The notes: generated by a model not told the origin, from the letters alone. 62,013 nucleotides of DNA, filler included, from Hausera hauseri (GCA_046269625.1; 12 parts of 12 records of this genome joined end to end with filler, not necessarily neighbours in it); one strand, 5' to 3'; shown: positions 6,051-51,918, counted from the whole stretch's first letter. Made by a program: numbers and translations.

Positions 6051-6054
6051 AAAC

Positions 6055-7620: not shown

Positions 7621-7622
7621 CC

Positions 7623-8555: not shown

Positions 8556-8561
8556 AACAAA

Positions 8562-8850: not shown

Positions 8851-8863
8851 TAAAGAAGCATCT

Positions 8864-10155: not shown

Positions 10156-10158
10156 ACG

Positions 10159-10630
10159 ATGAACAATCGAGAGATACAAACAATTTTAAATTCCGACATT
10201 TTCGTCCGTCGACACCCCGTCAAAATCGTGCCCCGAGACATGTTACCCAAATGCATCGACCTGACAGAACCTGCGGCCTTTGTCATAAATACTGACCCTA
10301 GCAACCTGCCCGCACGCATTGGGTAGCCTTATACTATGACGGCGTCGGCACGTTTCATTATTTCGATTCCTTTGGACTACCGCCGCTGCACGCCGAGATT
10401 GACAATTTCATTAAACGAAACTCAAACAGAGAACTCATATACAACGAGCGAACATTACAGGATGTTTTAGTAACGCCTGCGGACTCTACGTCATTTATTT
10501 CATCTCCATCAAAGCCAGAGTCGGGAGCATGCGACGGGACATCATGTGGTTTTCCTCAACGAGACAACACGTCAACGATAGGCTCTTTTGGCGCGTCGTC
10601 CGGCCTTGGCTGCGGGAAAAACCCCGCAAC
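10159..10630 (+). pseudogene. adenain-like cysteine protease (capsid maturation)
   Basis: VINTDPSNLP../HWVALY...YFDSFGLPP...LQD..NACGLY: His, Asp, Gln and Cys catalytic residues; frameshifted. Confidence 0.88.
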
Positions 10631-10719
10631 TATAAATATCTATGATGTCACACATCCGATGTAAACAGGATATAATGATATATAAGCGAGTAGCACACAC
10701 CCATGGGTCTGTTTTCAAA

Positions 10720-10878
10720 ATGTTTACGCGAATTGATAACGACGTTTACATGACGGCGGATTCCGCATTAGCAAAACCGATAGGTCCGGCTAAACTAGTT
10801 ACAGTTTCCTCATACCGAAACAGAGTACTGATACATATTAGAAGATACTATGGTGAAAGTAATAAGAAATTTCCCACG
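10720..10878 (+). CDS. PC4-like ssDNA-binding domain protein (truncated by contig end)
   Basis: PIGPAKLVTVSSYRNRVLIHIRRYY...KFPT resembles the PC4/Sub1 pattern kxVtVxxFxGxvlvdIRxyY...PtkKG; TATA-like sequence at 10681. Confidence 0.65.
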
Positions 10879-10979
10879 NNNNNNNNNNNNNNNNNNNNNN
10901 NNNNNNNNNNNNNNNNNNNNNNTTAATTAATTAANNNNNNNNNNNNNNNNNNNNNNNNNNNNNNNNNNNNNNNNNNNNT

Positions 10980-11545
10980 AGAGAGAGAGAATAAATGGTG
11001 CTAATAAATGTCTTGACGATAATGGTGCAAATAAAAATGTAAAGTGCGTCTAGACAATGTCAAAATGGTGCAAATGGTGCATATAAAAATGCCTAGACAA
11101 TGTAAAGTGAGTCTAGCAATGTCAAAATGGTGTAAATGGTGCAAATAAAAATGTCTAGACAATGTCAAAATGGTGCAAATGGTGCATATAAAAATGCCTA
11201 GCAATGTCAAAATGGTGTAAATGGTGCATATAAAAATGTCTAGACAATGTAAAGTGCGTCTAGACAATGTCAAAGTGGTGCAAATGGTGCATATAAAAAA
11301 GTCTAGACAATGTAAAGTGAGTCTAGACAATGTCACGTGTGAGTCTAGACAATGTCACGTGTGAGTCTAGACAATGTCACGTGTGAGTCTACACAATGTC
11401 ACGTGTGTGAATCGACAATGTCACGTGAGAATAACAAATGTCTGGTGACTTTCCGCACGCATCGCGTGACCAATCACGTGACGCGTGGGCGGATATCACG
11501 TGACGCGTGGTCGGATCACGTGATGCGTGGGCGGACCCCCCCCTT
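10980..11545. repeat. compound minisatellite after an (AG)n start, grading into CACGTG-rich repeats
   Basis: Repeated units CTAGACAATGT(C/A)AA, AAATGGTGCA and GTGAGTCTAGACAATGTCACGT, then ATCACGTGACGCGTGGGCGG. Confidence 0.9.
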
Positions 11546-11574
11546 GGCCCAGAAACATCTTTTTTCCCCTACTG

Positions 11575-12939
11575 GCAAAAACAAAAGTTTTTATTTATTC
11601 GAATATTAAAACAAAAAAGTTTTTTAACAAATCACCCATTGGGTGAATGTGGGCACCACATCACTCCGCCCCCGTGGCAAAGTCAGATTTGTCAGGCAGG
11701 AGCCCTCGTGAGTCTTCTGGTGACCAACATGTAGGTGGACTGTGACCTAGAAGGAGACTCAGCAATTGAAATATTTACGGCCGGAATTGTTCGATTTCTT
11801 TCTGAAAGACCGTTTCGAATATCGGTGCCAATGCAGTTTCAAATTTACTGAAGTAATTGGGATTGTTATTGCACACGATTTTTATGCACAGCGCAATGGA
11901 TTTCATTAGAAAATGACTGAATCGTGGTTTCTTCAGATTTTTAACGACTAGATACCATTTTCGTAGTAAGAACGGCAGAATTTTATCCAACGGCAGCTGA
12001 CTAGTTTTCAAGAAACTAAAATAGCACATAATGGCCTGCATAGCATAATCATTCCCTTCTGATTCTTCAATATCCCGACAATTATATTCTGGTGAGTAAG
12101 AGGGATGAGAAATGTTTGAACAATTGTTGGTTTCTTATATTTTATTCGGCTCGACGGGGGCTGAACTGACGGTATCTGATGTGTCGACTGCGTCGTTAAT
12201 GGAGAAATAAAATAATTCCTGGATTTCGCCGAGATGTAAATATGGGATGTGAAATTCCACTTGTTTCCCTTCGATTATGAGGCAACCAGTCTCTCCTGGG
12301 TTAATTGGTTGATGAAAAATGGTTGACCCTGCTGGATCCGTAACCGTTATAGAGTATTGAATTTCTGCCCGTTGTACAGCGACTGTGTACAAATGTGGGC
12401 TTCTGACACCAGTGTTAAATTTGTCATTTCTTTTATAAATTGTCGCATTGTCTACATCAATGCCTTTGACAAGTTTTGACTGAGATTGAGACTTCAAAGA
12501 AATATTTTCTTTATAATCAACATCATCATAAATATGGTGATTATCGGATTGCTTCATAGAATATAAATTATTGATATTACTTATAACTTTATTAAACGTA
12601 TTAAGAGAATCGGAAGCTTCATTCACATTATCAAAAACAACATAATTCAATTTACCATCTTCATAAACTTTTTTGATAACACTCTGTCCGCTTAAAATTT
12701 TTTCATAACATTCCTTAGATAGTAAAACCGTATCGGATTCGTTTGGGTCATTATCGTCAACAATACTGACTTTAATTAAACTTTGTTTATCATATATTTC
12801 ACCGTCACCCATCATCAATTAAAAAACAATAGTTTGGAAAGACCGTCTAACTGCAAAACAAAAGTCTTTATTTATTCCAATATTAAAACAAAAAAGCTTT
12901 TTTTAACAAATCACCCATTGGGTGAATGTGGGCGCCACA
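11575..12939. repeat. ~85-bp direct repeats (11575-11660, 12853-12939) containing the palindrome TCACCCA-T-TGGGTGA
   Basis: Direct comparison: GCAAAA(A)CAAAAGT.TTTATTTATTC.AATATTAAAACAAAAAAG...AACAAATCACCCATTGGGTGAATGTGGGC.CCACA in both copies. Confidence 0.9.
12135..12818 (-). CDS. hypothetical protein (227 aa)
   Basis: Uninterrupted ORF in AT-rich DNA; no family recognised. Confidence 0.5.
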   Translation of the reverse strand: MMMGDGEIYDKQSLIKVSIVDDNDPNESDTVLLSKECYEKILSGQSVIKKVYEDGKLNYVVFDNVNEASDSLNTFNKVISNINNLYSMKQSDNHHIYDDVDYKENISLKSQSQSKLVKGIDVDNATIYKRNDKFNTGVRSPHLYTVAVQRAEIQYSITVTDPAGSTIFHQPINPGETGCLIIEGKQVEFHIPYLHLGEIQELFYFSINDAVDTSDTVSSAPVEPNKI

Positions 12940-12940
12940 A

Positions 12941-13820
12941 GGACCACTTCTCGAATGTAACGAATATCAGTACATCCTAACCATTCTGGACCGGAAAACA
13001 AGATGGCCCAGAGTTATTCCAATCCGCTAAATAACAACGCAAAACGTTGTGGCTGTATTGCTAAATACATGAATTCCTCGGTTTGGAGTACCTAAAAACA
13101 TTATACCAGATCAAGGTACCCAATTCGAATCAGCCATGTTTAACCAATTAACCAAATCGCTTGATTCAAAGCACACACACATCACCCTATCACCCGCATG
13201 CAAATGGCTTGATTGAACGATTTCATCTTACACTCAAATCATCCCTACGAATCCTTTGCCACGACAACAAGAATTGGCTGGACGCATTACCCATCATGCT
13301 ATTAAGATGGAGAAACACTCCGAACACTAGCACTGATGCCTCTCCGGCACAACTATTATTTGGTGCCCATCTCACACTCCCACAAGATCTGGTGAGCAAT
13401 GAGGAAGTAACTTCCATTCCTGCTCTCAACCAAGCTCGGAAGCATTTTCTGTCAATAGACACAAATCCGGCATTCCACAACAATCACAAAAAAACAATCA
13501 TGCCCAAGAACCTACGAGATGCATCCTTTATCTGGCTCAGAAGTCAACAAAGACATGGTTTTGAACCATACTACACGAGCCCCTACAAGCTCACAAAAAT
13601 CACTGAGCACAATGCCAAAATAATACGCGACAACGACGAACATATAGTCCATTTGTCGAACGTAAAACCAGCATTCGGCTATCATAATTCCGATACAGAA
13701 GATCCTATCGAACAAAACGTACCAAGCATGTCAGAAGTAGACAAGCTTCAAGAAAACTACGAAAAAATTGATCCATTCAACATGGACACTCCTATAGCAG
13801 ATTACCCGACCCCGGTCTAA
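12941..13820 (+). mobile_element. Ty3/Gypsy integrase fragment
   Basis: GPL...YILTILDRKTRWP, RFGVPK.IIPDQGTQFES, TSPYHPHANGLIERFHLTLK and a GPY/F-like YTSPYKL. Confidence 0.9.
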
Positions 13821-14170
13821 ACCGAAACGTATATCACCCCAATACCCGTACTTCCGGAAACGGAACATACGATAATACGCAACCAAACCCCTGCCGCACC
13901 GCTATCGAGTCGCACCAGGAGTGAATCCAAGAGACCCCGACGTCATTGAAATCTTACCGTAACAAAACAGTGAATGCCTGGTTGCACGTAGCGTAAGCGC
14001 CGCACCAAAACAGGTGGGAATCAAACACAGTGCCGAATTGACACTCGTTCATACCGCTTTTTATACGCAACGGGCACGCCACACAACCAGCCAAACACCA
14101 TTTCTAAAAAACTGCTAAAAATATTTCCCATGTATTGTCGAGGACGCAAAATGCCGTCTACCATGGCGCA

Positions 14171-15199
14171 TTAAAAAAACTCGCCATACAATCTATCAAA
14201 TATCAAATTGAAAAAATGGAAGCGGAAAAGGTGTATCTTAGCAATCAAATCAAGAAATAGAACGCAAAAATATAATGCCAAAATACTCGAACCCTTTACC
14301 AAATCACCAATTTGGAAAATTAGAAAATTTAAAGAAAAAATCACAACTTGCATTGATGGGATTTTAAGTAATTTACTGCACAAACTGATAATGATAGCCA
14401 TAATAAAGCCCAATACTACTGCCACCAGAAAAGCATAAATTGAAAATGCAAAAATAATCCAAATATTTCGAATGAAGTACTCATCCGATGTCTTTCATTT
14501 CAGATATAATGTTGCAAAAAACAACTGCTACTCCATGATTCAACAAAGATTCCCCGAATATGATATTGTAAACTAACCGATTAATATTCATGGACTCAAA
14601 TACTGATAGAACAGCAACCGAATCAACAGCACAAATTAACATGGCAAATATACTACAATCCCGCATGTTTGGGTCGATGTTATCAAATACCCCCATCTGG
14701 ATTTACCGCCATAATATAGAAACGGAACTAAAATTGCTGCATTTAAGACTGTACCGCAGATGGCGAACATAAGAATTGTTGTGATATTTCGGTAAAAGAC
14801 CAATTTATCTACTGACCATCCGGCATTCATAACAATTGGAACAAGTAACACGTTCAAAATTAACCGGTCTGGAAATACAATAGACTCGTAATCTTTAAAA
14901 ATCAATAAAACTCGTCCTGCTATAACTCCAGTCGTAACGAGAAATGCGCTTTCCGGTAAAATTTTCCCAGCGGACGTAACATGTTTTATACATTTATTGC
15001 CAAATTTTCCAACATTAATTAGACATTTTCCTTTGATTACAAATATGCAATATCGAAATTTGACTTCAGTTACGACTTTTACCAATACGAAAAACAAAAC
15101 AAAAATTGATCCCAGAACGTAAACTCTGACTCTCAAAATGAGAAACTTTAAATGGATTATAGGAATGATAGCAAATGTTTGAAACTTGACTTCCTCCAT
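14171..15199 (-). pseudogene. Na+/H+ exchanger (SLC9/NHE family), intronless and frameshifted
   Basis: LPESAFLV..G, LLVPIVMNAGW, FYRNITTILMFAICGT, AVDSVAVLSVFE and IFGESLLNHGVAVV across three overlapping ORFs. Confidence 0.8.
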
Positions 15200-16339
15200 T
15201 TGGAATTAACACAAGTAAAGTACCATGAAAAACTTATTCATATATTAGTTGCTTTATTTGTTTATTAAATATGCAATTTATGTGTAACCTTAATTGAAAC
15301 TGAGCTCCATTTACTTTTGATTATTGCACTATTTGAAATATAATATCTACATGATACAGTTTGTACATTAAATGAATTTGAGAAAACTACATTTCCAAGT
15401 AATACTTCGTTTTATAGTTTTATCGGCTGACTATTATGGCTACTAACAATGCAAATTTGTGATATACATAAAAGTACCTTTTTTTTTCACAGTGCAGAAA
15501 ATTAAACAAAACCATAATGACAATTGTAGGAAAAAGAAATAATGAACGAAACACTCGGTTATCGTCAAAAGTATCAATTTCGCCGATAAGTTTTAATTTC
15601 ATATTTAGCAAAAGACGAATATTATTTCGTAGCGTAACAAAGTCCGAATCAAGAGATTTCATTGTATCGAGAATGTCATTGAAATCATTTAATGAATCAA
15701 CATCAGCATCATGGTTGATGGAATTGTCTATTTTGTCCAACTGTTGAATGCAATAATTCACACGATTCTAAAACTGATCAGTCATCAATCAGCGTTAGTA
15801 GTAAACGGAGTTGATTTTTGATTTCGGATTGAAGTTAATTAAAATGTAAATAGGACGTCGATTGAAAAACTATTACTATTGTAGTTCTAGACTTCGTACG
15901 CCTCGATTGATTCCTCCAACAACGATTGTGTTAACAATAAACATGGTGACCATTACTTCGTTTTTTCTCTTCATTGTCTCGTGTCATTTTTAGTTTACTG
16001 TTTTGTCGCTATTACGTGGTGGGCCAGAGGTAAGGCCTATTTTAAGGCGCCAAACTCTAAACTGTCTTTCCGATATTTTGGTTAGGAGACTTTACCGCAT
16101 CACGGAATAATTTCTTCACTGGTGCCAAATCTCTAAACTCTTCTACGGTTTGCCTATCTTCCAAAATTTTAGCCTCTTCCCTCATCTCTTCTACCGTCAT
16201 TTTTGGTTTGAAAACAAACCGCTCTCTTAGNNNNNNNNNNNNNNNNNNNNNNNNNNNNNNNNNNNNNNNNNNNNTTAATTAATTAANNNNNNNNNNNNNN
16301 NNNNNNNNNNNNNNNNNNNNNNNNNNNNNNTGTAATCTA

Positions 16340-17829
16340 CTTCCAATTTGCTTAGATACGACTATTTGTTTATATTCTACGTTCCGTTTTTGATGAAATA
16401 GACTGTACTCTTTATTTACATTTGAATCACAGACTCTGACGTTGATCACCTCGTTTAAACAATGGCAAAAGTGTAACATTTATTACCTGTTCAATTTGAA
16501 ACAAAATCCGTCTTAAAAGCATAAATACGATCGAATGAATTCAACATTAAATTACCGATCGACATTTGCCACAAAACTAATAGCAGTTCCAATTTGCCCG
16601 AACCGACCACATCGTCCAATTCTGTGCAAATACATTTCCGAAAATTGCGGCAAGTCATAATTGATCACGACATTGACCGACAGCACATCAATTCCACGTG
16701 CCATAATATCGGTACAAACTAAAAATCGAACAGTTCCATGACGGAATTCATGGAAAATGATTGTTCTAACATCTTGTTTCATTTTAGCATGGATAAAGCG
16801 ACACGTGTAACCCATTTGTCCTACACATTTCGTTAGAAATTCGACTCTCGATGATGAATTGCAAAATATCAGACACTGATTCACGTACAAGTTCTTCAAT
16901 AACTGTCTCAAACACGATATTTTATAAGCTTCTTGTACGTTGATATAAAATTGACGTACACCAATCAATGCTAATTCATGCATTCTATTTATTCTGTCAT
17001 ATTGCTTTAGAGTCTTCTCCACGAAGCTCTTCAGTGATTCCGGATAAGTAGCCGAAAAAAGAATTTTCTGACAACCCTGTGGTAAAAAGTGAATTATTTT
17101 ACCAACAATTAACTGAAAAAAGTCATAGTAATTAAATGAAAAACAAAAAACAAAACAACTTGAAAGTTGAAAGACAGTAACTTATCGGCTTCATCTAAAA
17201 CAACTTTTTTTTACTCGTCTTAATGTATTTGGTCTGTTGTAAATTATGTCGAGTATTCTGCCCGGTGTTCCTATTATTAAATGTACCGGATTATTAGGGG
17301 TGTTAAAACGTAGCAGATCATCAATTAAATCTGTGCCGCCGGTTGCGATCAACATCTGAAAACCAAGTTTATATTTTGCTAAATTTATACAAACGTCAGC
17401 AGTTTGCAAGGCCAATTCTCTTGTGGGAACTATTATTATAGCTTGGGTTCTTTTTCGCACATCAATACTCTGAACAATCCCAATCGAAAAAGCACCAGTT
17501 TTGCCTGTACCACTTTTTGCTCTAGCAATAAGATTTTTATTGCCAATGATTTGACTAATTGTTGCATCTTGAATAGGAGAAGGCCATTCCCATCTCATGT
17601 CTGCAAGAGCCATAATGATTGTCGGATGAAGGTTTAAATGAAGAAATGATGCTTCTGGGTATGGTTGAATATCTGATGTTCTAAATGAATGGTCCAAATT
17701 TGGTAGAGGTTCGCTGTTGAACTTTAAACATTGATAATTATTTGGAGAATCAACAGATTCTGGTGATCCGAAGTTTTCCGGATGATTCGTATCAGAACTA
17801 CTCAAAACACAATTTTTTGATTCATTCAT
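16340..17829 (-). CDS. DDX6: DEAD-box RNA helicase DDX6/Dhh1/Me31B (short introns)
   Basis: PSPIQ, ARAKSGTGKT, VPTRELALQT, GTPGRILD, LDEADKLLS (after a one-base shift in a poly-A run at ~17205-17212), FSAT after intron 17113-17159, NQCLIFCNS, IHAKM and YLHRIGRCGRFG. The 3' end is approximate. Confidence 0.9.
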
Positions 17830-22811: not shown

Positions 22812-23139
22812 NNNNNNNNNNNNNNNNNNNNNNNNNNNNNNNNNNNNNNNNNNNNTTAATTAATTAANNNNNNNNNNNNNNNNNNNNNNNNNNNNNNNNN
22901 NNNNNNNNNNNGCGAAAAGCCGAACGAGACGCGGAACTATATAGGTGGAATGAGTCAAAAAATAGTAACAATAACTACGATAAAAGAAGAAACAATGGTA
23001 CACAAAAATACCAACGTTACCAAAGAAATAGAAGCCCTTCACGAACGTCTGCTACGGAAGCTGAATCAGATATAGAAAAGAAGGTAAGATTTAAGTTACG
23101 TAATGATGGAGAAAAGACAAATTATAAAAAATATCTAAG

Positions 23140-24825
23140 AAAGATGGAAGTGTACTGCCATGTATAGACTCAGAAAGAAGATTGAAATGTTTTAACTGTA
23201 ACAAATATGGACACATCGCGAAATCATGCACATTACGCAAAGGGGCTTCTTCGAAACTTAGTAACAAGAATAAACAAAAGAAGACAGATCATACATCAGC
23301 CACATCAGACGAATCATCTGATAAAGAATACGAAACAGAGGATAGTGAATCTGAAGCTAAGAATAAGAAGAAAGAAAGTGTCAATTATATAAACGATACG
23401 TTATCTCAACGCATGAAAAAACAATTGGAGATGAAAGCGAAAGATTATAAAACACAACAAAAGAGGCTGAAAGAAAATAGTATTTACATGGTGAGGAATC
23501 AACCGGAGAAGAAAGTATCCAGACAAGGGGGGAAGAAAGGTAATAAGAAAATAATTGACATAGAAGTATGATCAAGAGAAACGTCAACAGAGAGAGAAGA
23601 GGTAGGAAAAGAAAAGAAGAAAGGACAAAAGAAAAGTAGCCTCAAAACACCCTCATCAGATCAAGACGAAACCCAAACCATACCAAAATTTGATGAAACA
23701 ATATTGGAGAAGGTAATAAAAAACTCAGGTGTAAACCTAGATGAGGAAGATGATATCATTCAAGAAATAATGAATATTGACCCTAATAACATAGATGACG
23801 TAGATAAAACAATTACTAGTATATTGAAAGCAATTAACAATAAAATAACAGTAGAAAGAATGAACGAAATCTTATCTCAACTAGTATTAATCACTCAAAA
23901 TACCAGTCCTGTAAGAGAAATAGCCAGGATGATATTAGCCAAAGCTGCTGGAGAGGAGCAAGGAAGAAACGAAATAATAAAAATAACGGTAAGAGAAGGG
24001 AACCAAGACATGAAGGTCATCCAAATGAATGAAGCGGATGACATACAAAATATAAGAGAAAGGATAGAAGAATTGGAACCATTCTATCAAGGGATCCCTT
24101 ATGAATTAAATTATTACAGAAGGACACAATACAATTGCGATAGACTATTAAGAATTGGATGCAGAAATGAGAATTACAATCCAATAGTTATAACCGAGAT
24201 ACACACAGAGGCAAGAGCGCAGGCAACAACGGATAATATCCTAAGAGAAATGGAACCGCAAGAAGTAGAAGGACATCTCCTGGTCGATACGCAAGATGTT
24301 ACAGTTCAAACAGAGGTTAAAAGTAGAGGTAGACCAAAAGGAACAAACATAAGTGACATTCGCAACAAGAAAGACAAAAATGAAGAAATAGTAAGACGTC
24401 TATTATTAGCAGGAACAAACGTGACTCCTGAATCGGTAGAGATAGATCCATTATTAAGAACTTTACTAGCTAACTTACATACATCATTTGCTTCATTTGA
24501 TGCGCAGGTAATAATTCCAGATGAACTATTCCAAACATTACGTATTAATATGCTGCGAATAAGTAGACAGATTTACGAGAATCTAGACGAAGAACGGGCA
24601 AACGAGTTGCACGAGTTAGACATTTTAAAAGAGATGTTCGCAACGGGTATTACACGAGAGAAAGCACAAACCTCTATATCCTACCTTCTATACAAAATAA
24701 TAGTAATCAATCATCAAACTCAAAACTTAGAAGAAATTGAACGCAATATAAAGACAGTCGTGAAGATTTTGAAATTAACGTTAGAAATTGGGTCCATTGT
24801 AGAGGTGGCTGGTTGCCCAGTCTAA
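23140..24825 (+). pseudogene. gag-like protein: CCHC zinc knuckle, K/E-rich linker, AT-hook-containing helical region
   Basis: CFNCNKYGHIAKSC; the same frame continues through a single TGA (23569-23571) into the 373-aa ORF containing KSRGRPKG. Confidence 0.7.
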
Positions 24826-26766
24826 TGGCCAACATAGCAAGGTTGGGGAAGCGCGAAAGGTTAACAGATACGCCGATTCCGATTCAGCCGAACATCCCTA
24901 GATCAGGCATAACCGGTATGTCAATAATGGAAATCCTCCAGGTCCTCTTAATAACATCATTTTTAATGCCGAAAGCCGTAGGTATAGTGGCCTACGACTG
25001 CTCCAAGCCTAGTAAAGGACAGAAGTATTCTTTATTGGATTTAGAGAAATGTCCAGAAGCCGATCCGGAACAATTAACTACGACAAGTGGCCTTACATAT
25101 TGGGTATATCAAGAATCAGAATTTATAAAAGCAAAAATTAGGGAATGTTACGTAAAAAGATCATTTTTCCTTTTTAATTGTGACTATTATTCTGGAAATT
25201 CGGCCATAATCGAGCCCACAACACCTTTCTAACCGATAATCATATCACGAGCAGAATGTCAGGATGCTTTCAAGATTGGCATAACTATTCAAAACGTACA
25301 TATACCCGCAGTTTGAAACAGAATAAAATATAACAGAATCTTTCGAGCAGGGCGAATAGATAAAACAAAGGAAAGTACATGTAAAGGAGTGGATTACGAT
25401 GTGGGAGGCGCCATTGCACCTAGAACGGTGGCTATAGAGGATTATCAAGTCCAATTGAATGAATATGAAGGATTGTTCGACTCACAAACGAAATTAATGA
25501 TAACTATGAGTGAATGTGAATATGATGATGGCGAATGTGATTCTGGAGAGTCGAAAATGACATGGGAAATATCGGCAAGTAAGTGCCAGTTTACGCTATT
25601 AAAAGAAGGAAGATTTAACAAGGCAGTAGGAAAAACAGCGACATATAAAGAAGGAACAAAGGAAGTTAAGATGACGGAAGTAGCTACAATTGTATATTCA
25701 GAAAATCCAGAAGAGATGATGCGATTCAAAGTTACGGGAGTAGTACATATGTGTGGTGAAGAAATATCGAGAACAAATTATAAGGGCATTTTCCTATCAT
25801 TAAAAGAAATGTCCGCAGCAAAAACGAAAATAGATAAGAAAGACATAAAATTAACACAATAATTTGATAATAAGATTGATTTTTTAATCAAAGATGTACG
25901 GAAAGAGATTAGAGGTTTATACCGTGAAATAATAATGCACTAATGTAAACTAAATTATAAAATAATACGGAATAAAATGGCCCTGGTAATAACAAATCCC
26001 GACATGGTAGCGCCAGTCATGCCCTTTGGCGACGAAATTATTGGAAGGGTGATGGGCGAAGTACTGATAACCATAGAATGCAAAAGGGTGAAAGTATCAA
26101 TCAGGCCAACAGAGGAATGTACAACAGAATTACCCGTAGTTTGTAATACAGAACCAAGGAATGTGATGCCAGATAATGAAAAATGTATTAGAATGCTAAA
26201 AAGAGAACCAGTGTCTAAAGCAGAAACGTTAAGCTTAATTAATTTACAGAGGAACCAGAGATTCGAACCGTTAACAGGGATATCGCAAGAGGAATCTATA
26301 TTCAACAAAATTTAGAAAATTACCGAGAAATGCTGTTATTCCCACAACAAAGGCAGCGGGTTATAACAGAGCTAACCAGGAGAATAATGTGGGACGGTGA
26401 AGGATCACCACAATGGGAAAATTTAATGGGTAAGGATTACCTAAAGAATGTAAGAAAAAACGTTATGGAAAAGATGTGGGGAAAATTCTTATATTTCGAC
26501 CAAGCGGCTTCAGGTTTCCTAGCGACATATTTTATTATTAGTGCTGTAGAACAGTATTTACGGTGCTAGGTAAGGCGTACGGAATACATACAGCAGTAGG
26601 ATGCTCATGGAAAATCTTAATAGCAGTAATACCGGGAGTCGCAAGCTGCTTTCTAGCAAATCATGACGCCAAATGGAAAAAAAGATATTACAGAAGAAAG
26701 ACGGAAGAGATTCTCCACACAGTATGCCTGATGATAACAATAGCAAATATGATCAGGTCAAAGTAA
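24813..26766 (+). pseudogene. chuvirus-like envelope glycoprotein (env-like)
   Basis: Signal-like ILQVLLITSFLMPKAVG then IVAYDC...YSLLDLEKC, ECYVKR...C, ISRAEC, TCKG, HMCGEEISRTN, GEVLITIEC, ECTTELPV, a TM segment and AYGIHTAVGCSWKILIAV; stops and frameshifts. Confidence 0.8.
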
Positions 26767-27006
26767 AATCAAAGAATAATCGAATAACTAGTATTAAGCA
26801 ACTAGCACTGAAGTACGGAAACAGAAGTACAAACAAAGGTTGGTGATAGACTTACCTCATCCAGATCCCGTGTGTGAATATCATGGACAATTATATAGCG
26901 NNNNNNNNNNNNNNNNNNNNNNNNNNNNNNNNNNNNNNNNNNNNTTAATTAATTAANNNNNNNNNNNNNNNNNNNNNNNNNNNNNNNNNNNNNNNNNNNN
27001 TTAGTT

Positions 27007-30583: not shown

Positions 30584-31437
30584 TACATCGAATTTGAAAA
30601 TATACCGTAAGAAATTTCAATTAGAAAATTTCAACACTATTTAAAACTAATTTAACCATATAGATATTAATTACATATGGTTAGCTTTATTTCAAGTGGA
30701 CGTACTTGTATGACATATCCACACAAGACATTCATGTAAAACGTTGTATTATGACTTACAATTCAATTACTTTTGAGCATAATTGATGTAATGAAAGACT
30801 ATAATATTTAAACTTATATTGAATGTTTAATTTATAAAGAATGTGGACACATTATTCATGACCAATTAAGAATATTAGCTGGATAAATATTCTGTCAGGT
30901 GTAAAAAAAGCATTGAGGACATGCAGATGGAAATCCTTTGCTGTACAAAAGATATGTTAGTAGGTAGATGTGAGTGCATAGTGTTAAGACCCCCTCCGAC
31001 GGAGAAAAATCGATGTGGTTTGGGATGAGTCATGGGGTAGAAAAAAGGGTCGCAAATACATAGTGTACTGGATGAAACATATTATCCACGGCCATTATAC
31101 ATAGCTCCTTTATGACGTATCCGCTATTATTATCCACAAATCCCTCCAAGTCAATAAAGAAGACAGACATTATTTCAACAATAACATTTATTANNNNNNN
31201 NNNNNNNNNNNNNNNNNNNNNNNNNNNNNNNNNNNNNTTAATTAATTAANNNNNNNNNNNNNNNNNNNNNNNNNNNNNNNNNNNNNNNNNNNNTTTTGGC
31301 CTGATTTTATTTTCTATTTTTATTTTAATTTAAACTACTGACAATTATCAGTAGTATTTGTCATTATTATTCCTATACATAATTTCATTCGCTGTTGCAC
31401 ACAATATTTTCTGCCCCATGAATTATATTTTAATATT

Positions 31438-31480
31438 TGAGTAGCCAATTATATCGCTCCTCTATTCTATTGGTTACTCA
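31438..31480. promoter_or_regulatory. inverted repeat carrying CCAAT boxes upstream of the Rep unit
   Basis: TGAGTAGCCAAT-19 nt-ATTGGTTACTCA (12-bp stem, one G-T pair). A second hairpin ACTACTGA/TCAGTAGT lies at 31334-31355. Confidence 0.45.
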
Positions 31481-31616
31481 TTTTATTTCTTACAAGTTTT
31501 AGGGTAAGGAAATATTAATAAAGGTCATTTCATTAATTCATTTAAACAAATTGTCGTATTTAAAGTTTAATTAATGAAATTCAATCATTATTTTCTGGTG
31601 AATTTTATCAAATTTC

Positions 31617-31919
31617 ATGGCTAATAATTGTGTTAATGTTGATGTTGACCTAGATAGTTTATGGAGTAATATTTCGCAGGATTATTCACATGAGGAAATT
31701 GTTCCTCATAATGTAAATTAATTTTTTTTAATTATTTATTTAATTTTTATTAGAAAATTGATAATGTTTTTTTTAAATGAAGAAGTTGTGGAAGTTATAG
31801 ATGTTGATGGCTTAGATGAAGAGCCAAATTTATTCGATAAAATTATTCATAATGTATTATATTTTTTATTTAAATTATTTTTAATTATTTATTAGGATGC
31901 TGAACGGGATATTAATTAA
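31617..31919 (+). CDS. small acidic spliced ORF upstream of Rep (needs a one-base homopolymer correction)
   Basis: ATG at 31617; GT..TTAG introns at 31713-31753 and 31854-31895, both preceded by CATAAT; exons encode D/E-rich sequence. Confidence 0.45.
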
Positions 31920-31936
31920 TATAAAAAAATTTTCTG

Positions 31937-33109
31937 ATGTTGGGCGAAAATGACATGCCCCTGCTTCCTCGCTCTTTGGGTGAAGAGGTCTTTAATGCGT
32001 TACAGAGTAAGTTTAAAGATGATGTGCGCACACTTGCTTACCCCCCTCCCAGTGCTACTTTCCGGCACTGGATGTTGGTGCACGAACTTAGGAACAGTGA
32101 CGATGTTTTTGTCTATTTCCGTTTTTATTTTGAGTTGTATAAGGTTCGTCACTGGTACATTCGTATGCAGGAGGAAAAATCACCTTCCGGGTTCCATCAT
32201 CTTCACGTTCTTATTCATACCCCTTTTGCATATCGTCTGTCTTTTATGCATAAGCATCTGCAAGCTTTTGTTGTCCCCTTTAGGGCTGATGTGTATGCTG
32301 TTTACTCGTATCATTTTAAGCCCACTTTCGAAAATGCAATTATTTTATCTTGTGGAAACCCCCCTATAAATGTATATAAGGAGAATAACTCCCGTAAGGC
32401 GCTTTATCGATTATTCGATGAGGCGCCGACGGTTGAGGATGCTCTCGCCATCATGAAGGATGGCGATCGAGCTGAGTACGTTACCCGTCACGGTATGTTA
32501 CATAAATATATAAGGAATAAATTCCGTCCTCGTTTTACCCCTAATCGTGATCTTGTGTTCTTAATTCCTCCGATACCTTTTTCGGTGCGTGATGGACGAA
32601 ATAGTGCTGTTTTATTTGGGTCGAGTAATATCGGGAAAACGTCGTATGCTCTTAGTCACGGTCGTAACCCGTTACTTCTCCACTCGTTGCATGATACTCC
32701 TTCTGATTGGACAGGGGAGTATGATGTCATCATATTTGATGATGTGGGGTTTCATGACTTGGCCCCTGATTTGTTTTTGGCTATTTTACAGTGTAATCAC
32801 GAATTGGACAATAGGTCCATTCGTGGTTTGTATAAGTCGGTGGTTGTTCCCTCTACAGTTCCCGTCATCTTCACTTACAATTGTGCTCTTTCGTTTTGGC
32901 CTGCTCGTATGGATGGCTTCCAGAAGGAAGCTTGCATTAAGCGTCTTTTTGTGTATGACTGCGGTAATAATTTGTTGTATAAGTCTTCGGGTTCTCGAGA
33001 TGTATTTCTTTCAAATAATGTAATTGATGTACGTCGTTTAATTGATGCCAATAATGGACCCTGGAATGCAGCTGGTATGCAACCTGGATGCAGCTCAAGT
33101 GCAAGGTGA
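31937..33109 (+). CDS. rep: CRESS-DNA virus (geminivirus-like) Rep: HUH endonuclease + SF3 helicase
   Basis: QEEKSPSGFHHLHVLI (motif II), YSYHFK (motif III YxxK), oligomerisation-like helix EDALAIMK, Walker A GSSNIGKT, Walker B IIFDD, motif C IFTYN and arginine finger ACIKRL; uninterrupted 390 aa. Confidence 0.9.
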   Translation: MLGENDMPLLPRSLGEEVFNALQSKFKDDVRTLAYPPPSATFRHWMLVHELRNSDDVFVYFRFYFELYKVRHWYIRMQEEKSPSGFHHLHVLIHTPFAYRLSFMHKHLQAFVVPFRADVYAVYSYHFKPTFENAIILSCGNPPINVYKENNSRKALYRLFDEAPTVEDALAIMKDGDRAEYVTRHGMLHKYIRNKFRPRFTPNRDLVFLIPPIPFSVRDGRNSAVLFGSSNIGKTSYALSHGRNPLLLHSLHDTPSDWTGEYDVIIFDDVGFHDLAPDLFLAILQCNHELDNRSIRGLYKSVVVPSTVPVIFTYNCALSFWPARMDGFQKEACIKRLFVYDCGNNLLYKSSGSRDVFLSNNVIDVRRLIDANNGPWNAAGMQPGCSSSAR

Positions 33110-33519
33110 AGAATGACTTTGATTTTGTTTTGTGATTGGCTGGTTAAATATATATAATCTTGTGTCTAGTATTTTGTATTTTGTTTTTAAATATGTGGCA
33201 TAATGTTTTCTTACGTAATCCTGATCCTAAAGCTCAGGAATATCAAATGTGTAAATTGTTACTGCAGGGATATGAACGTCTTTATGCTGTTGGACGTTTT
33301 TTGAAGAATATTGATGCTGATCGTTTATGTGATAGTCCAGATCAGATTTCCAATTATCAACATGCTTGTTCCTATGTTCAAGATATTCAATGTGATCTTT
33401 GGAATTTAATGCGCGGTTATATATATCTGACAGCAACTCCTCTTCGACCGAAATTGACCACATGCTCCATACCAATCCTAATCAAGACAAGTGTAGCATT
33501 ATACACCAGGCAAACGAGA

Positions 33520-33835
33520 TACGCCTTATATATTCCTGACATTCCCAATATATTGTCTATATTACTTATATATATTTCCATATTGCCTGTATATTTTTTA
33601 CATATTCCCCATGCATTCCCCATATATTTTCCTATACTCCTATATATTCTCTATATATTCTCTATATTCCTATACGCCCCATATTCTCCATATATTCCTC
33701 ACATTCTCAATATATTGCCCATATATTTCCTATATGTTCCTCATATGTGCCTCATATTTGACCCATATTACTTATTATTCACCATATCCTTAATATATTC
33801 CCTATAATCCTCATATATTCCTTCCTTATTCCATC
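33520..33835. repeat. low-complexity CATATATTCC-type minisatellite
   Basis: Repeated (C)ATATATT(T)CC/CT units. Confidence 0.8.
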
Positions 33836-34119
33836 CTCATGGGATCAAAAGTTAACAATGATATTTTCAAATATCTAATGAAAGTTCTGATGTATTAAAA
33901 TGATTCAACACCAGTCAGTCGTGACATTGAGAAAAATGCTAAGAATTTCTCTGCCCAAATAACGTGGTAGGTAATACTGAGTATGTGTGAATAACACATT
34001 ATATTTGGACGCAGTTCTTATGTTAATTGTGCCATACATTTAATATTAATTCTTTCATGTTGTACATGCTGTATATTACATAAACTTCTACACAGTCAGT
34101 TTATTTTTATCCACTTTAA

Positions 34120-35115
34120 TTCAATACACTTATAATTTTATTGATTTCTCCAAGGCCAAATATATAAAATGTGAATAGGCAAAGATCTATCAAGAGATTT
34201 GAAGATGGAAATAATTATTTGCAACTTGCTGATCGACCTGGAATTATATGGAAAGAAGAGTGTAGTATCGCCGGAACATTTGTCAAGACCAACGGCATTA
34301 ACAGATGTGAAAAAGATGGAAGAATGAACGTCAAAGTAGATGTAGAGATGAAAAATGCATTGATATATATGATAAAGAATAATGCCCTATTAATTTTTTC
34401 TGATATGAACAAACAGTTACAATTAAAGTTTCCAGAAAAACCTCAAATTGCAGTTCAAACTATTTCCAATATTTTGGATGGATGTTTTATTTCTGTGAAA
34501 ACTTTGTATGATGTACTTGCAGAACATAATCGTGAAGATGTCATCAACGACAGATACGAATATTCAAATTGGTTTATTAATACTGGAATTCAAAAAGATT
34601 TAATCTCTTCACAAGACGAATGTGCAAAAGGGCTGCTTTTGATCAAAAGGCAACACGGATTGTGAAATGCTGCAAAGGGAAAAATATTAATAATATATTG
34701 GCCAATTCTTCAGTATGATTACATCATGTTCAATTTTTTCACAGCACTGTTACTTCCTTCAAAAAGTATTAAGACCTATTTCTAAAGAAACTAGTACGAC
34801 ATTAATATTCCATAATGCATCTGTTCATAGACATGAGGGAGAAGTTGTCAAAGGTAATGTATATGTTAACGTACGGCATTTTTCAAAAATAGTGTTGAGA
34901 AGCATTTTCTTGCCTGAAATAATCTATCATACAAAGTTGATGCTTTAACAATCAGTTGCCAATTCAATATGAAATATCTATGGTAAAGCACGGTTCAAAT
35001 ACTCTTTTGGAGGTCTAAAATGATAGCATAACTATGCTTAAATGTCACGTGTGGTTTACTCATACTTAGTATTACTTTCTGCGTTGCTTCGCTCGAGAAA
35101 CAATACAATGTTAGT
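34120..35115 (+). mobile_element. Tc1/IS630-like transposase remnant
   Basis: HTH region (QLKFPEKPQIAVQTISNILDG..ISVK..YDV.AEHNREDVI..RYEY) and degenerate second catalytic motif LIFHNASVHR. Confidence 0.65.
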
Positions 35116-36232
35116 ATACTTCCTTTTCGTGAGTTACTTCATGTTATAACAACAATAAAGTTTCTAAAAATTTGATTGTATTCATTATCTTTAAAACTGT
35201 GCGCCCTTTTATGTGATTCAGTGATGCTTTACCTTCATTCATATATGTAAACTTCTTTGTTATGTATTTAAATTTAACTCCTCAATTAGTACTCATTTCT
35301 TGATTTACTGGTATAAATCATGTTGATGTAATTAAAATATTTTCAGATTTTATTTATTTCAGTAATTTGCTGTAATTTTTACTATTTCTCATTTTGAAAT
35401 TGAAAAGCTGTAGTTGCTTTTAATTTTCATTTTATTTCTTCAATTTACTTAGGTCACCATCGGATAAAGTTTTGAGAATTTTAATTACAGTTGATGTGCA
35501 TAAGTTCAACAGTAATCCATTTTGGATCCCAATATTGGTACCTGTAATTGATTGGCCCAAAATTTTATCAAATTTTATACGAAAACGTATATGCATGCTT
35601 GCCCGTAACTGTCTGAACCGAAAGGAGCTTTGATAAAAATACATCAGATTGATAAGTGTATATTTTGATAGTTCGGTCATCTCAATACGATCTTAAGAAA
35701 TAATTTTGATAATTTAAACAATTATTTTAAATATTTTTGAATAAAATTTTCTTGGGTAAAAATGATTTAACACACCTAAAATTTTGGTAAAAATCGTAAT
35801 TCTTATATTATTGATACATAAAAATTTTATTGAAAAAGTATAAAATAATAGAGTACTAATTAATATAGGACCTAATTACAACTCCATATGTTACTAATTG
35901 TTGAATAAATATGCTCTACAAATAAGGAATGCAAATTATTACAATGGTTTCCTCATTTATTTCTGGATACTGCAGTTTTGGTTACTTTGTTACAAAATTA
36001 TACCAGTCATATAAAAATATCATGTACTTTTTAGAACATCATAAGTTATTGTTCTAATTTTACCATCATTGAAAGCAAAGACTATAAATCGTTAAAAATT
36101 GTAATGACATTCAGCACATGAGAGGAGAGTCCATGTATTCTAATAAGAAAGAAAAATGAAATAATAATAATAATAACTTTCACATCTATACAACATATGT
36201 ACAAGATATATATATACAAACATATGTACAGC

Positions 36233-36821
36233 CTATCTACAGAAATACACTGTACAATTATTGAAAATATTTGATGCAGCAGGACTTGCGTAAATGTCGG
36301 TTTCTGTTATTTCATCTCTCATATCAATTGTGTCGGTTTGTATTACTCCATCTGCAGTCTTCCTTCTTTCAGCTGATTTTCGTAAATTGAATATAATTGC
36401 TGATTGTTCCTCTACTTTCTTCTTCCAGTAAGAGATACGTTCCTCTTGCTGCATTATTTGTTGTTCCATTACCTTCATTTTCTCTAGTAAGTGCTCTTGT
36501 GTTTCTTCCGTCTGTTGTGATTGGTCTGCTTGTTCCGACTTATCTGTTTGTTGTTCAACTGTCTGTTTTTCTCTTTGTTGTTCACTTGCCTGCTGGACTG
36601 CATATTGTTCTAACTGTCGTTGTTCGTCTGGCTGCTGTACTGTATGCTGCTCGTCTGCCTGCTGGAGTGAATGTTCCTCTGCCTGCTGTTGTTCGTGCGC
36701 CTGTGGCTGATGTGATGTTTCTGGTTGTTGGACTGCTGCTGGCTGTTTCCTTTTCTTCGGCACAATCTCAAATCTCTTGTCGAGATTTTTGTGCCACTTT
36801 TCTTCAGCCACATTATCCAGC
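36233..36821 (-). CDS. Gln/Glu-rich repetitive coiled-coil hypothetical protein (5' truncated)
   Basis: 192-aa ORF with imperfect QQxxEQ repeats; no family recognised. Confidence 0.45.
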
Positions 36822-43130: not shown

Positions 43131-43766
43131 ACTGATCCTTTCTATTCTACGTTGGAACTCATTGAAAAAGCGTTGGGAGATGTAAAGTTGAATAAGAATC
43201 TGATTCATGATATTGTTTTAGTTAGTGGATCTACCCGAATTCCGAAAGTTCAAGTCTTTATTAGAAATTTTCAACGGTAAAGAATTAAATAGTCCACCAA
43301 TTCAGAAGAGGTCGTTACGTATAGAGTTGTAATTCATTTTGCTATTTTGACGGAAGATAAATCGAAAGTTGTTGAAGATCTGTTATTGTAGGATGTTACT
43401 TCCTTGAGTTTGGGTATGGAAACAGTTAGAAAAATAATGATAACGTCAACTAAATGTAATATAACAACCCCGATGAAACCAACGCAGGTATTCAGTACTT
43501 ATTCGGATAATCAACCCTGGGTGTTGACACAAATGTTTGAAGGTGAGCAAACAATGATGAAAGATAACAAGTTATTGGGAAAATTTGGATTCAGTAACAT
43601 TCTTCCTGCACATCGAGATGTACCACGAGTTGAAGTGACATTCGATATCGATGCTAATAAAGTTCTTAACGAATTAGCAGTGTATAAAAGTACTGGGAAG
43701 AAAAACAAAATTACTATAATGACTGAAGATCAACTGTTGAGAGTCTTCAATAAAAATATAATCTAG
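43131..43766 (+). pseudogene. HSP70: cytosolic HSP70 pseudogene fragment
   Basis: [70 protein letters not shown] and [10 protein letters not shown]. Confidence 0.92.
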
Positions 43767-47961: not shown

Positions 47962-50900
47962 TTATCTCAAACGCCAATGTCCGTACGCCCAACTCTTATT
48001 TCGCCCTACCAATTTTAGCTTATCATCATTTCATGATAAAGCGACTTTGGAGTTAGTAATAGTATATAGCTGACGCCCAATCGATCGGATGATAGTTTGA
48101 GACAACCGTTTTTGATTGCTCTCCATCGGGTTGTCCTTCATAGATCGGCGATAATTACCGTGGTTAATTTCTGGGCTAACTGGACTCCTTTCACCCGCAT
48201 TTTCGGTTCAGAGTCCGTCAACAGACTGTAGCACTGAGCGCAGGAATATCCATTCCCGGTACCGGATACGGCCTTCGCTTTCATCTTTGAAGCAACCAAT
48301 TTTGTTGGTGATCCTGTGGATAGTTGGACGTGTCCAATAATCCATCTGACTTCATTTGATGCAGCAGTTGTTCCCGATTTACATTTTTAAACCGCAGGAA
48401 AAAGCTGTCTGTGTCACCGGCAACGATATTGATCCTGCACCCGTCGAACATTTGCTGATAACGTGCCAAATCGCGATACTGCAGCTCGTACATTAGTAAC
48501 TTGCTCGGGTCCAATACTACCTGATCTATATAGCTTAGCCAATCCAGTGCGACTTCTTCCCTATTTAATAGCACAGCAACCAAATCATCGGCAATGTGCA
48601 TTGACCGCTTGAACTGTGCATTGGTGGTGTTTGTAACCAGCCGCTTTTCGTTGTTGCATAGGCGCATATTAAGTCGCTTTTTCAGGTTTTCAACTGTTTT
48701 GCTTGGAACTGCTTTTCAGCTTGTAATAGTCCTTTTCAAACTTTGTACAAGCTGCGGCTCGTTTCTATGAATTCCCATCAATGTACGGCTTAAATATCGG
48801 CGCCTAGCTGAACCTGATTGCACGATGCAATTGTGTGACTCGTACACCGAGCTTCATGTAAAATTGCACCAGACGCCAATGAACCACATTATTCGACTTG
48901 GGTTCATGCGTCATAAGCAGTTTTCTCACTTTTGAGCCCGGTGGACATTGGCTGATTGGTGCGATCGGCAATTCATCCAGAAAGTCATGCAGCTCATCTG
49001 GTACAATGAGATCGACTTCCATCAGGTAACCAATTGAGCTGCTTTCTGTCGTGTCTGCTGTCGGCAGAATTTCTATTATTGTGTCCAGATCTTGCTTGTC
49101 TACTATCCATTCGAATGAACCGTACGACAAGGGTTGCGAAAGCGCCCAGTCGTACAGGTTATTAATATCGGTGTACAGTATTGACGTTATATCATCACTG
49201 GTTACGTGATGTTTTTTGACAAACGTCATGTCGCCACGAACATCAACATCAAATAGTCGGTACATATTCGGGTCTTGCAAAAGCTCAATGTGCTAGTTCA
49301 GCGACATCAGAGCCGACGCCCAAATCATTCCCTGTATGGAGTAAAACTTAGCGGCTCCAACCTATCTTCTGCTAACGCCTTATCTCGAAATATATGGAAC
49401 ACATCGACTAATAAGTACACGTCCAGTTTCAGATACTGGAGCATGTACTCCAACAGGTTGCAGCAGCCGAGCTCTGACCCAAATCCCTGTGCTCTATGAT
49501 ATTCATCTTCTATAATACCGAGACATCGCGACGGCAATTCTTCTGTTGCCAAAGACGCTCGTACGACACCGCAGTCATACGGGAATATGCCTTTGCTACG
49601 CGCAGTGTATAGGGAATTGTGTCATTGTTAGCGGTATATCTGGCAAAGCATTTACTAGCTTCGCCAATGACTCTTTGAGAAACTACAATGAATCAAGGAA
49701 GCATACCTAAAACCGCCGTATACGTGCAGACAACGACAGGTACGTCTCCATTATAGTCGGGATTACGGATAGTTCCAAATAGGGAAACCCGTTTATGGCC
49801 CGTTTCAAAATATGGTGACAATCATAACCCCGGAAGTTATGAAAGAACACCGGTAGGAATGGTCGCACATGCCTTGCCAAATTGCATGATTTGCATGCTG
49901 CTCCTAGGAATCTACCGGTAAAATGATCATGATCTGGTACGAGCCATTCCTGTGCATTGAATGGTAATATTTTATGGCACAGGTAACATTTGTCTGTGAC
50001 TGCAAACGTCAGGCGTTCGTCTTCATCTGTCCAAATCAGGAGCTTTGTGCTGTTACTGCCATACCACTGTGCGATTTCCGACTCAACTATTGTTTCCAAC
50101 TGATGCAGGAAATCGCGTACGCAGTTCCAGCCATGAAAAACGTAATATTGGAGTTAACCTACGGCTTTTATTGAAACAAACAGCATGCCGACGACAATCG
50201 GAATGTTTATGATCATATACGTTGTGATATGGTAGGATTGCCTCAATATCAGCATATACAACATATGCCGGACTGTCAGTTTTCGACCTGTCACTGAACC
50301 TCAGCTCCTTTTTACTGGCATGACATACATTGTTGTTCCTGTTGCATTTTGTCTGCAAAGCGTCACATGCTTTTCCCATGTCGTTTTTGATCTGAAGCCG
50401 TGCAGACAGTACACCATTTGCATCGTATTCGTTTTTTGATAAACAGATCATGATCCATGTTCAGCAATCTACCCAAAGTTTTCAGGGCCATGTAATGATA
50501 CTTTTCCACCTGCTCCAACAGCAACATATTTATTTGGCATCCATTTGGATTTCGGGTTTGATAGGCTATATCTACATGGGGTTCTTATAGATTTCTTCAT
50601 CTACTGGTATTTCAACTATTGAGTTGTACCGGAAAACGTTGATTGACAGCATCGGATTACGCCGTTCGAAGGCTGGTATGGTTTTTAGTTTCATCGGCAT
50701 CCAGTTCTCATCGAAATCCAATTCGGAAAAATACTGCCGATACTGATTTGGATGATTAGCATGTTTTCTGTCCATTTTGTCATATTTTCATACGGCCAGA
50801 ATACTGTAAAGAAAACAGTATTCATCGTTCTTGTTTTGTACATTCACCATCGCCAGACTGCTTTAGAGCTGCAGGTGTCGGTATGAATGACTGTCCGGAC

Positions 50901-51918
50901 AAATATCATAACACTCGACCTTGTTATAATAAAGCCGAGTGACAATTTTATTATTCGCCAACAACTGCTCTTTGCGGTATAGTTGGCGATTTTTTCGTCG
51001 AGCTTTTCACCTACGTCGGTAATAAAATCCTCTGAATATGGCGTGGTTCAGTGTGACAAGTACCACTGTTTCCTGTCGCCTTGAAGATTTTCAAATTCTG
51101 TAAGTGCATAATATTGCATTTTGCAGTTGTGTTGGAATTTCTTCACTTTCGATTCCAACCGGTGGCGCACACTGGACGGTACATGTCTCAAGTGTGTTGC
51201 TATTGTCACTGACATATGTATCTTAATGCCCACGTACGATCTGTTCAGATCATGCCTGACAGTAATGTCAGATTCCTGTTGCTGCTCCTGTTGTTACTGC
51301 TGCTGCTGCTCGGCAATGTTTCTGATTAAATCGTCAAGGCTTGTTGAGGCCTGACGTTTCCTACTAATTATTGAAGGGATGCTGCTCTTAGTTGAGTCCA
51401 TAACTAGCTGTTTTTTCGACCGCTTAAACTGGATTAAGTGGTCCTTGTGCAGATTATAAAATTGTTCATAGTTGATTTCAGCAACTATTGAACAACCGGG
51501 ACAAACGTACGCCCATTTATTGTGCAGCGTTGTGGTGCCATAGTACTGCTCAATTGCACTATGACAACCACTAACGTTGTGCACTTTATTATTGCAGTAG
51601 TGTGGGTGTGTGGGGCAATGCACAACCATCATCTTCTTAGACCGAGTAAACGATCCGAGATTATGCTTGTGCGCCTCATAAAATTCGGCGTACGGGCCTT
51701 CGGATGAAACAACACACGTTGGGCACACGTGTCTGTGCCAATTGCGTAATATTTTGCAATCAGTTTATGGCACTGACCACCCTCATGTCTGCTTGAGATG
51801 CAGTACATAGGATCTTGAACACATTTCTAAATTGAAATAAATTAATGATAAATGCTATATATTAAATCATTTATAATTAAAATTAAAATACGCGTAAATT
51901 ACAACTTATCACGCCCAT
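47962..51918 (-). pseudogene. Polinton-type protein-primed DNA polymerase B (copy 1) with endonuclease VII-like domain and N-terminal Cys/His repeats
   Basis: YCFLYSILA, FERRNP.LSINVF, HYMALK, YADIEAIL (ExoI), DHDHFTGRFLGAACKSCNL, FHNFRGYDCH (ExoII), KGIFPY, YLKLDVYLL (ExoIII), YTDINNLY (motif A), YYKLK (motif B), AGDTDS (motif C) and the SWAYGH C-terminus. Confidence 0.92.

Follow-up and report, generated by a model that had tools for sequence, protein, structure and literature searches.

Intact endogenous elements that carry a Rep and no other viral gene are documented in invertebrates and protists (PMC6186406, PMC9615429, PMC4231630). Rep-only is the usual endogenous form: 37 of the 38 Blastocystis endogenous viral elements (EVEs) described are Rep-like and one is Cap-like (PMC9615429). 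Capsid-less replicons that combine an HUH nuclease with an SF3 helicase are also already known, among them the alphasatellites, the Pyropia pulchra plasmids and pCRESS (PMC6668415, PMC11463337). In CRESS Reps, the motif III tyrosine nicks, the middle domain builds a ring and the SF3 motor unwinds (PMC6668415, PMC7468197, PMC11463337). Two other kinds of eukaryotic mobile element have an HUH nuclease, namely Helitrons, defined by two tyrosines and an SF1B helicase, and Replitrons, which have one catalytic tyrosine and no helicase (PMC10288648).

We analysed a 62-kb window, meaning the whole stretch of DNA at hand, which consists of 12 contigs of 4.0-6.5 kb (GC 0.31-0.45) united by 11 artificial spacers. 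Each spacer is 100 nt long with the structure N44+TTAATTAATTAA+N44, and they lie at 4865, 10879, 16231, 22812, 26901, 31194, 36822, 41112, 47033, 53678 and 57950. Since the spacers are artificial, genes separated by one are unlinked. The contig that carries the Rep element (31294..36821, 5528 bp) has a spacer on each side, and its left end, 643 nt from the Rep ATG, truncates the upstream region of the element. An earlier note, made from the sequence alone, had placed the Rep in an animal-like genome, among viral and transposon genes riddled with stops. Neither setting is established for the Rep, because the PolB elements, the glycoprotein, the DDX6 gene and the other genes concerned sit on other contigs, unlinked to the Rep. 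Composition changes along the Rep contig at 31934, 33419, 33839 and 36295. An Rfam search of this contig gave zero matches, and neither a terminal repeat nor a circular overlap was seen on it.

The other contigs have contents of their own. On the plus strand at 22912-26900, an ORF that we take to be Gag-like from its zinc-knuckle motif is followed by a broken fusion glycoprotein of the Monjiviricetes type (PF24664); the pair is likely a retroelement that has captured a glycoprotein of viral origin. Two decayed copies of another element, 76% identical over 3.3 kb, occupy 47962-51206 and 58057-61298 and encode a protein-primed PolB (PF03175) and an endonuclease VII (PF02945). The broken ORFs at 4965-10878 (plus strand) have zero Pfam matches and presumably resemble the integrase, capsid and protease genes of Polintons or adintoviruses. 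A very divergent DDX6/Dhh1-like helicase gene at 16555-17829 (minus strand) shares at most 54% identity with any sequence retrieved; an A-run interrupts its reading frame, which probably reflects misassembly, and a short intron is probable as well. Host-type gene fragments (a CAS/CSE1 C-terminus and a Na/H exchanger) are found at 10979-16230 along with tandem repeats and part of a retroelement integrase, and an Hsp70 gene fragment (PF00012) at 43416-43766 (plus strand).

The Rep is encoded on the plus strand at 31937..33109 by 390 codons without a stop. The remaining five frames over the same span contain 6-48 stops, and the probability of an open frame of this length at the local base composition is about 8e-10. 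The protein comprises an HUH nuclease (approximately residues 39-145), a helical oligomerisation domain (150-200), an SF3 helicase (205-350) and a low-confidence tail. In the nuclease, E80 is conserved, motif II reads H88-L-H90 (HUH) and motif III reads Y125-H-F-K128 (YxxK with a single tyrosine); Y125 and K128 align with the family tyrosine and lysine and lie on a predicted helix. The helicase is complete, with Walker A (G228-T235), Walker B (D268-D269), motif C (N315) and the arginine finger (R336). Motif I reads W45-M-L-V-H and departs from the UUTU pattern, with V48 at the position where threonine stands in 60% of 162 relatives. A different candidate for motif I, TLAYP (residues 32-36), was rejected since it precedes the first predicted strand and W45-H49 is the aligning position. 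Aligned with the 162 relatives, the Rep retains E80, H88, Y125, K128, Walker A, Walker B, N315 and R336. It deviates at 5 of 24 highly conserved family positions, none of them catalytic, a level of deviation equalled in 6 of the 162 relatives; this fits a long branch or relaxed selection. The intact 390-residue frame and every motif reported earlier were recovered, including the atypical motif I. The ORF is real and encodes a CRESS-type Rep with complete catalytic residues save the motif I threonine. With its single tyrosine and complete SF3 helicase, it differs from both Helitrons and Replitrons, as had been claimed, while sharing with both an HUH nuclease in a eukaryotic genome and with Replitrons the one catalytic tyrosine.

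In the AlphaFold2 model of the Rep (mean pLDDT 75.9), the nuclease has five strands, the middle domain is helical and an AAA+ domain follows. The nuclease model superimposes equally well on nanovirus, geminivirus and circovirus Reps (a tie at Z 10.1-10.8, rmsd 2.4-3.1 Å over 94-100 residues), and the helicase model on the ATPase domain of PCV2 (Z 9.8, rmsd 3.0, 128 aligned residues). CRESS Reps top the list in a search of the BFVD viral folds (best E 5.5e-25 to 1.8e-21), and the top clusters of a language-model search bear Gemini_AL1 (score 0.97). The Rep has its domain order and helicase signature in common with unclassified Cressdnaviricota whose helicase reads GKTx(F/Y)ALAHF, such as the Periparus ater and Ficedula parva CRESS-DNA viruses, giant panda-associated circular DNA virus and a red panda crucivirus. 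The best fold matches come from this group. However, identity in the fold alignments is only 17-22%, those records are free genomes, and the AHF present in 85-97% of relatives is replaced by SHG in the Rep.

At the sequence level the Rep is very divergent. A phmmer search of 1.84 billion representatives yielded 362 proteins with E<=1e-3; the top one is 31% identical (E 3.5e-17). No match was found in Pfam (including Gemini_AL1), NCBIfam, PDB sequences, a word-index protein search or phage records, nor in IMG/VR when queried with the single Rep protein; a word-index search with the Rep-family alignment returned one protein only at E<=1e-20. Among the relatives scanned, 21 of 26 match at least one of Viral_Rep, Gemini_AL1 and Gemini_AL1_M at E<=0.01. 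A profile built from 21 relatives, with the window Rep left out, had a single match across the window, the Rep ORF (E 1.2e-42). Pattern-based scans, which have limited sensitivity, found one match in 185,579 GTDB genomes, on a 976-bp MAG contig, and no Rep relative in plasmids (PLSDB) or phages. The Rep appears to have no credible prokaryotic relative.

Geminivirus and genomovirus Reps are defined by an FLTY(P/S) motif I and a GRS motif between motifs II and III. The description of the Rep as geminivirus-like is borne out in part. Motif II is HUH and not HUQ, a feature shared by Geminiviridae, Genomoviridae and CRESSV6 and found in Repensiviricetes (PMC10288648). Many of its relatives weakly match Gemini_AL1_M, its language-model clusters bear Gemini_AL1, and its helicase obtains its highest score, by a slight margin, with gemini-like relatives (90 bits, versus 81 and 78 for others). 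On the other hand, the nuclease scores 2.6-5.6 bits against gemini-like relatives and has neither an FLTYP motif I nor the GRS-like FD..HPN segment (present in 12 of the 162 relatives), and the contig has neither a TAATATTAC origin nor a coat protein gene. The protein probably acts like a CRESS Rep and cannot be assigned to Geminiviridae or another named family.

Trees did not place it more closely. The first was a quick tree of 83 of 163 aligned rows (the top 60 hits, the loci described below and the window Rep) and the second contained 46 hand-picked rows. Both consist of database hits and loci, in place of classified family members or geminiviruses. In both trees the Rep sits on a long unplaced branch of 1.2-1.6 changes per site, and AU tests of three placements rejected none (p 0.47-0.48).

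The left arm of the Rep contig is 77% A+T and contains two hairpins. One has 8 bp and a 6-nt loop (31334..31355; z -3.1, with 1 of 200 shuffles as stable). The other has 12 bp and a 19-nt loop (31438..31480, plus strand; z -4.6, 0 of 200 shuffles); it was chosen after the scan, in which it ranked second of 274 windows, and it is our candidate replication origin. Its loop terminates in TATT plus two bases at the position of the CRESS nonamer, with the canonical AC missing. The five NANTATTAC matches on the contig all fall outside the loops of the hairpins found, and we found no second origin on the contig. Since the arms of the 31438-31480 hairpin contain CCAAT/ATTGG, it may alternatively have a promoter role.

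Between this hairpin and the Rep lie two predicted GT-AG introns on the plus strand, one of 41 nt (31713..31753) with an A/T-only interior and one of 42 nt (31854..31895), also A/T-only, which shares 72% identity with the first one, taken together with its exon edge, across 43 nt. Two such segments occurred in 2 of 500 shuffles of the left arm, by a criterion fixed after they had been seen. If both are spliced, they leave open a predicted upstream ORF of three exons (31690..31919, plus strand) encoding 48 residues, 12 of them D or E, for which no homologue was found. Because its frame stops 17 nt short of the Rep ATG, the predicted upstream ORF would be a small gene of its own that does not extend the Rep. 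Thus, of the spliced leader described earlier, the two predicted introns stand, but splicing into the Rep gives way to a separate ORF. As predicted spliceosomal introns, they would point to a eukaryotic nucleus.

Downstream of the Rep, a second ORF (ORF2) begins at 33193 on the plus strand. Its first 76 codons (33193..33420) resemble the element, and the frame then continues through flank to 33807. The fraction of T at third codon positions is 0.59 in these 76 codons and 0.33 in the remaining 128; for comparison it is 0.47 in the Rep versus 0.33-0.40 in the flank and host-type ORFs. The composition change point at 33419 coincides exactly with the end of the Rep-like codon usage. The small orphan ORF of the earlier note, 204 residues long, therefore falls into two parts, 76 codons that are Rep-like in codon usage and 128 that run on into low-complexity flank. 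A model of the 76 residues, made from the single sequence, is a confident two-helix hairpin (pLDDT 84). Because it is predicted to be all-helical without a beta-sheet, ORF2 is not a jelly-roll. We found no family, homologue or related locus for it and no Foldseek match at E<=0.001; its best structural Z, 8.6, is to generic helical hairpins and uninformative.

The right junction opens a G-poor tract of degenerate 9-20-nt repeats (33419..33838), the start of probable host flank. The 3.4 kb to the right of the element hold this repeat, the decayed remnant of an IS630/Tc1-like transposase (33946..35100, plus strand; HTH part 34168-34662) and the 3' end of an unassigned Q/E-rich ORF that the end of the contig truncates (36236..36821, minus strand). 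The transposase assignment is lead-level, with HTH/IS630 family feature scores of 0.89-0.93 and no match in Pfam, NCBIfam or PDB sequences; the remnant is bracketed by imperfect 61-nt inverted repeats (43 of 61 positions matching).

We detected no capsid-like ORF on the Rep contig by tblastn or with a profile from the Cap-like ORFs of 20 relatives (best E 0.97), a profile whose positive control is its own training set and which a distant Cap might escape. As far as these searches go, the claim of an element without a capsid gene agrees with the contig, but the contig stops 643 nt upstream of the Rep. Because this leaves room for a Cap beyond the contig end, the element cannot be called capsid-less, and until shown otherwise the headline of a missing capsid is to be regarded as an artefact of where the contig ends. 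There is one copy within the 62-kb window, the right flank is repetitive and transposase-like, and the left flank is cut off. None of the hallmarks of transposition (a second copy, terminal repeats, a target-site duplication) was seen in the window or on the Rep contig, which are too small a sample.

Taken together, we interpret the locus as a recent, right-truncated endogenous fragment of a CRESS virus from an unnamed, highly divergent lineage, residing in a eukaryotic chromosome, and give this reading a probability of roughly 0.6. Of the options raised earlier, a recent endogenous CRESS virus fits best, given the intact Rep, the one-sided junction and the predicted introns. The one-sided junction into low-complexity DNA with a transposase-like remnant counts for an insertion; the lead-level status of the transposase and the position of the left junction off the contig count against it. 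Like the endogenous cressdnavirus elements (CEVs and EVEs) described in the accounts cited above (PMC6186406, PMC9615429, PMC4231630), the locus combines an intact Rep of more than 200 residues in a eukaryotic assembly with flanking host repeats and no adjoining Cap in sight. Unlike them, it fits no named family that could be compared, it retains a small helical ORF as well as an upstream ORF predicted to be spliced, and its insertion is presumed from the contig. The lack of a canonical nonamer in the hairpin loop counts against a fragment of an ordinary virus, and the deviations at 5 of 24 conserved positions would also weigh against this reading.

By analogy with the family, the Rep would bind the origin hairpin, Y125 would nick one strand with a metal held by H88, H90 and E80, and the Rep would then remain on the 5' end and form a ring via its helical domain. 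The SF3 motor would unwind the duplex and the Rep would rejoin unit-length circles. The origin is presumed to be the 31438-31480 hairpin, its non-canonical nonamer perhaps paired with the altered motif I. The upstream ORF, the Rep and ORF2 all lie on one strand, and a single spliced transcript may bear the first two and possibly ORF2. A replication intermediate would have been joined to host DNA at about 33419, within or at the end of ORF2, either by the Rep or by host repair end-joining, and the Rep frame would still be intact because the insertion is young. With a single candidate origin on the contig, this copy would be a passive fragment unable to release a circle, unless another origin is present to the left of the contig, in which region a capsid gene might also be found.

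A second reading turns on the relatives of the nuclease. The nuclease and the middle domain of the window Rep score best against an unnamed group of 21 Reps, in nearly all of which the motif I threonine is missing: 21.7 bits, versus 3.7 for circo-like and 2.6 for gemini-like relatives, in one comparison of the nuclease, and 25 versus 10 and 6 in another comparison; the group was drawn from hits to the window Rep, which favours its score. All 29 database clusters that we looked up are on contigs of at most 4.5 kb. One threonine-less cluster includes GenBank record QTE03536.1, named as a bird-associated CRESS-DNA virus, which is absent from the supplements of PMC9001828. A literature search, with most subscription papers outside its scope, found no description of the group. 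Domain shuffling is known in Reps of this kind (PMC7468197).

The genomic contexts of relatives differ between the two halves of the protein. The helicase signature retrieved 16 IMG/VR loci, with terminal repeats in 12 and the NANTATTAC nonamer in 14. Over all loci, 8 of 28 ORFs adjoining the Reps of relatives match families of geminivirus-, tombusvirus-, circovirus- or STNV-type capsids at E<=0.01, and 4 of these matches exceed the Pfam cut-off. Because the loci carry repeats, nonamers and capsid genes, this type of helicase normally comes from ordinary viruses with varied capsids. None of the IMG/VR loci, the Cap-bearing ones included, has the threonine-less nuclease type, although their number is too small to carry much weight. 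That type is found in loci L017 and L036, and L037 joins the group by its helicase; no Cap is seen in any of the three, and all three are partial. In L036, a metagenome locus, an upstream ORF and a 36-nt A/T-rich GT-AG segment precede a Rep on the same strand, the sole case among 41 loci of short A/T-rich GT-AG segments like those of the window.

Several of these loci are of separate note. The L036 Rep (L036:1-1338) is broken by a frameshift, is missing the motif II histidines and is accompanied by A/T-rich GT-AG segments of 36 and 40 nt. L037:3827-4648 is a helicase-only Rep relative on a 58-kb AT-rich contig, amid paralogous membrane-anchored ORFs and with a P-loop ORF that has zero Pfam matches; the contig is possibly a large DNA virus with a captured Rep fragment. 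Eight GC-rich metagenome contigs (L019-L021, L023, L026, L028, L031 and L032; GC 0.53-0.63) carry gemini-like Reps without an evident Cap or nonamer, and five of them form a helicase clade, starred in our tree, with two database proteins; they are a possible second capsid-less or endogenous lineage. At L034:1517-4372, on a 6-kb contig, a Rep-like ORF is divergent from a PIF1 helicase gene.

These comparisons bear on the possibility that the locus is a capsid-less rolling-circle replicon of eukaryotes, plasmid-, satellite- or transposon-like, with the small ORFs as accessories and a Rep of the threonine-less group that copies the unit from the hairpin and then re-integrates the copy. The contig has no Cap, its three ORFs share a strand, the nuclease is nearest to the threonine-less group, and L036 has a matching layout. 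The threonine-less type is in addition missing from the Cap-bearing IMG/VR loci, which speaks against an ordinary virus, and L017, L036 and L037, all partial, show no Cap either. Transitions from virus to plasmid are documented in the same region of the tree (PMC6668415). Alphasatellites, the P. pulchra plasmids and pCRESS9 likewise have a Rep with a nuclease and an SF3 helicase and no Cap in view, but they are circular and shown to be Cap-less, whereas the window element is incomplete on its contig. On the other side, the Rep contig is as partial as the three loci, a threonine-less cluster includes a record named as a CRESS-DNA virus, and there is one copy in 62 kb on a contig without terminal repeats or a second origin. 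The trees leave the Rep outside the threonine-less group, its motif II reads HLH against HxQ in that group, and the score is favoured by how the group was selected. We therefore consider such a replicon unlikely. Its more specific form is an undescribed capsid-less rolling-circle group of eukaryotes, whose members would combine an HUH+SF3 Rep lacking the motif I threonine with an origin of non-canonical type and one spliced transcription unit, and would replicate and re-integrate in invertebrate or protist genomes; it seems to us a rather slim prospect.

Alternatively, the sample could have contained a free CRESS virus or satellite (derived from gut content, a parasite or the environment) that was misassembled onto host DNA at 33419. 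A fully intact Rep ORF and a sharp junction into a low-complexity tract, a common site of mis-joins, would agree with such a chimera, as would the fragmented assembly and the probable homopolymer error in the DDX6 gene on another contig. However, the contig has no terminal repeat, circular overlap, Cap or canonical origin, and a free circle would usually assemble complete and separately; we regard a mis-join as unlikely. A Rep carried as the passenger of a larger integrated element, such as a Polinton-like element or a large DNA virus, was another option of the earlier note. It may draw on the L037 helicase-only relative amid unrelated genes and on the protein-primed PolB elements of other window contigs, but those contigs are unlinked and the Rep's own contig has nothing resembling such an element; capture by a larger element is unsupported there and very improbable. 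Domestication of an old viral Rep by the host, with a gain of leader introns in host style, would account for the intact frame, the long branch, the predicted upstream introns and several substitutions at conserved non-catalytic positions, but it is scarcely plausible, because composition and codon usage are unlike the flank, the intron style recurs in L036 and could be linked to no gene of the other 11 contigs, and ORF2, a second element-like ORF, is still attached.

On the reading that we prefer, a recent endogenous CRESS fragment, the gain is one intact and very divergent Rep, with at most 31% identity to any of 1.84 billion representatives. Through it, an unnamed CRESS lineage is linked to a eukaryote whose introns are short and A/T-rich, which aids host assignment once the host is known, and it draws attention to a group of 20 or more uncatalogued Reps that lack the motif I threonine. 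If complete threonine-less members prove to be capsid-less and multi-copy, they would form a new class of eukaryotic rolling-circle element. Should the capsid-less reading of the present locus be true, the element would join Helitrons and Replitrons as a third kind of HUH mobile element in eukaryotes.
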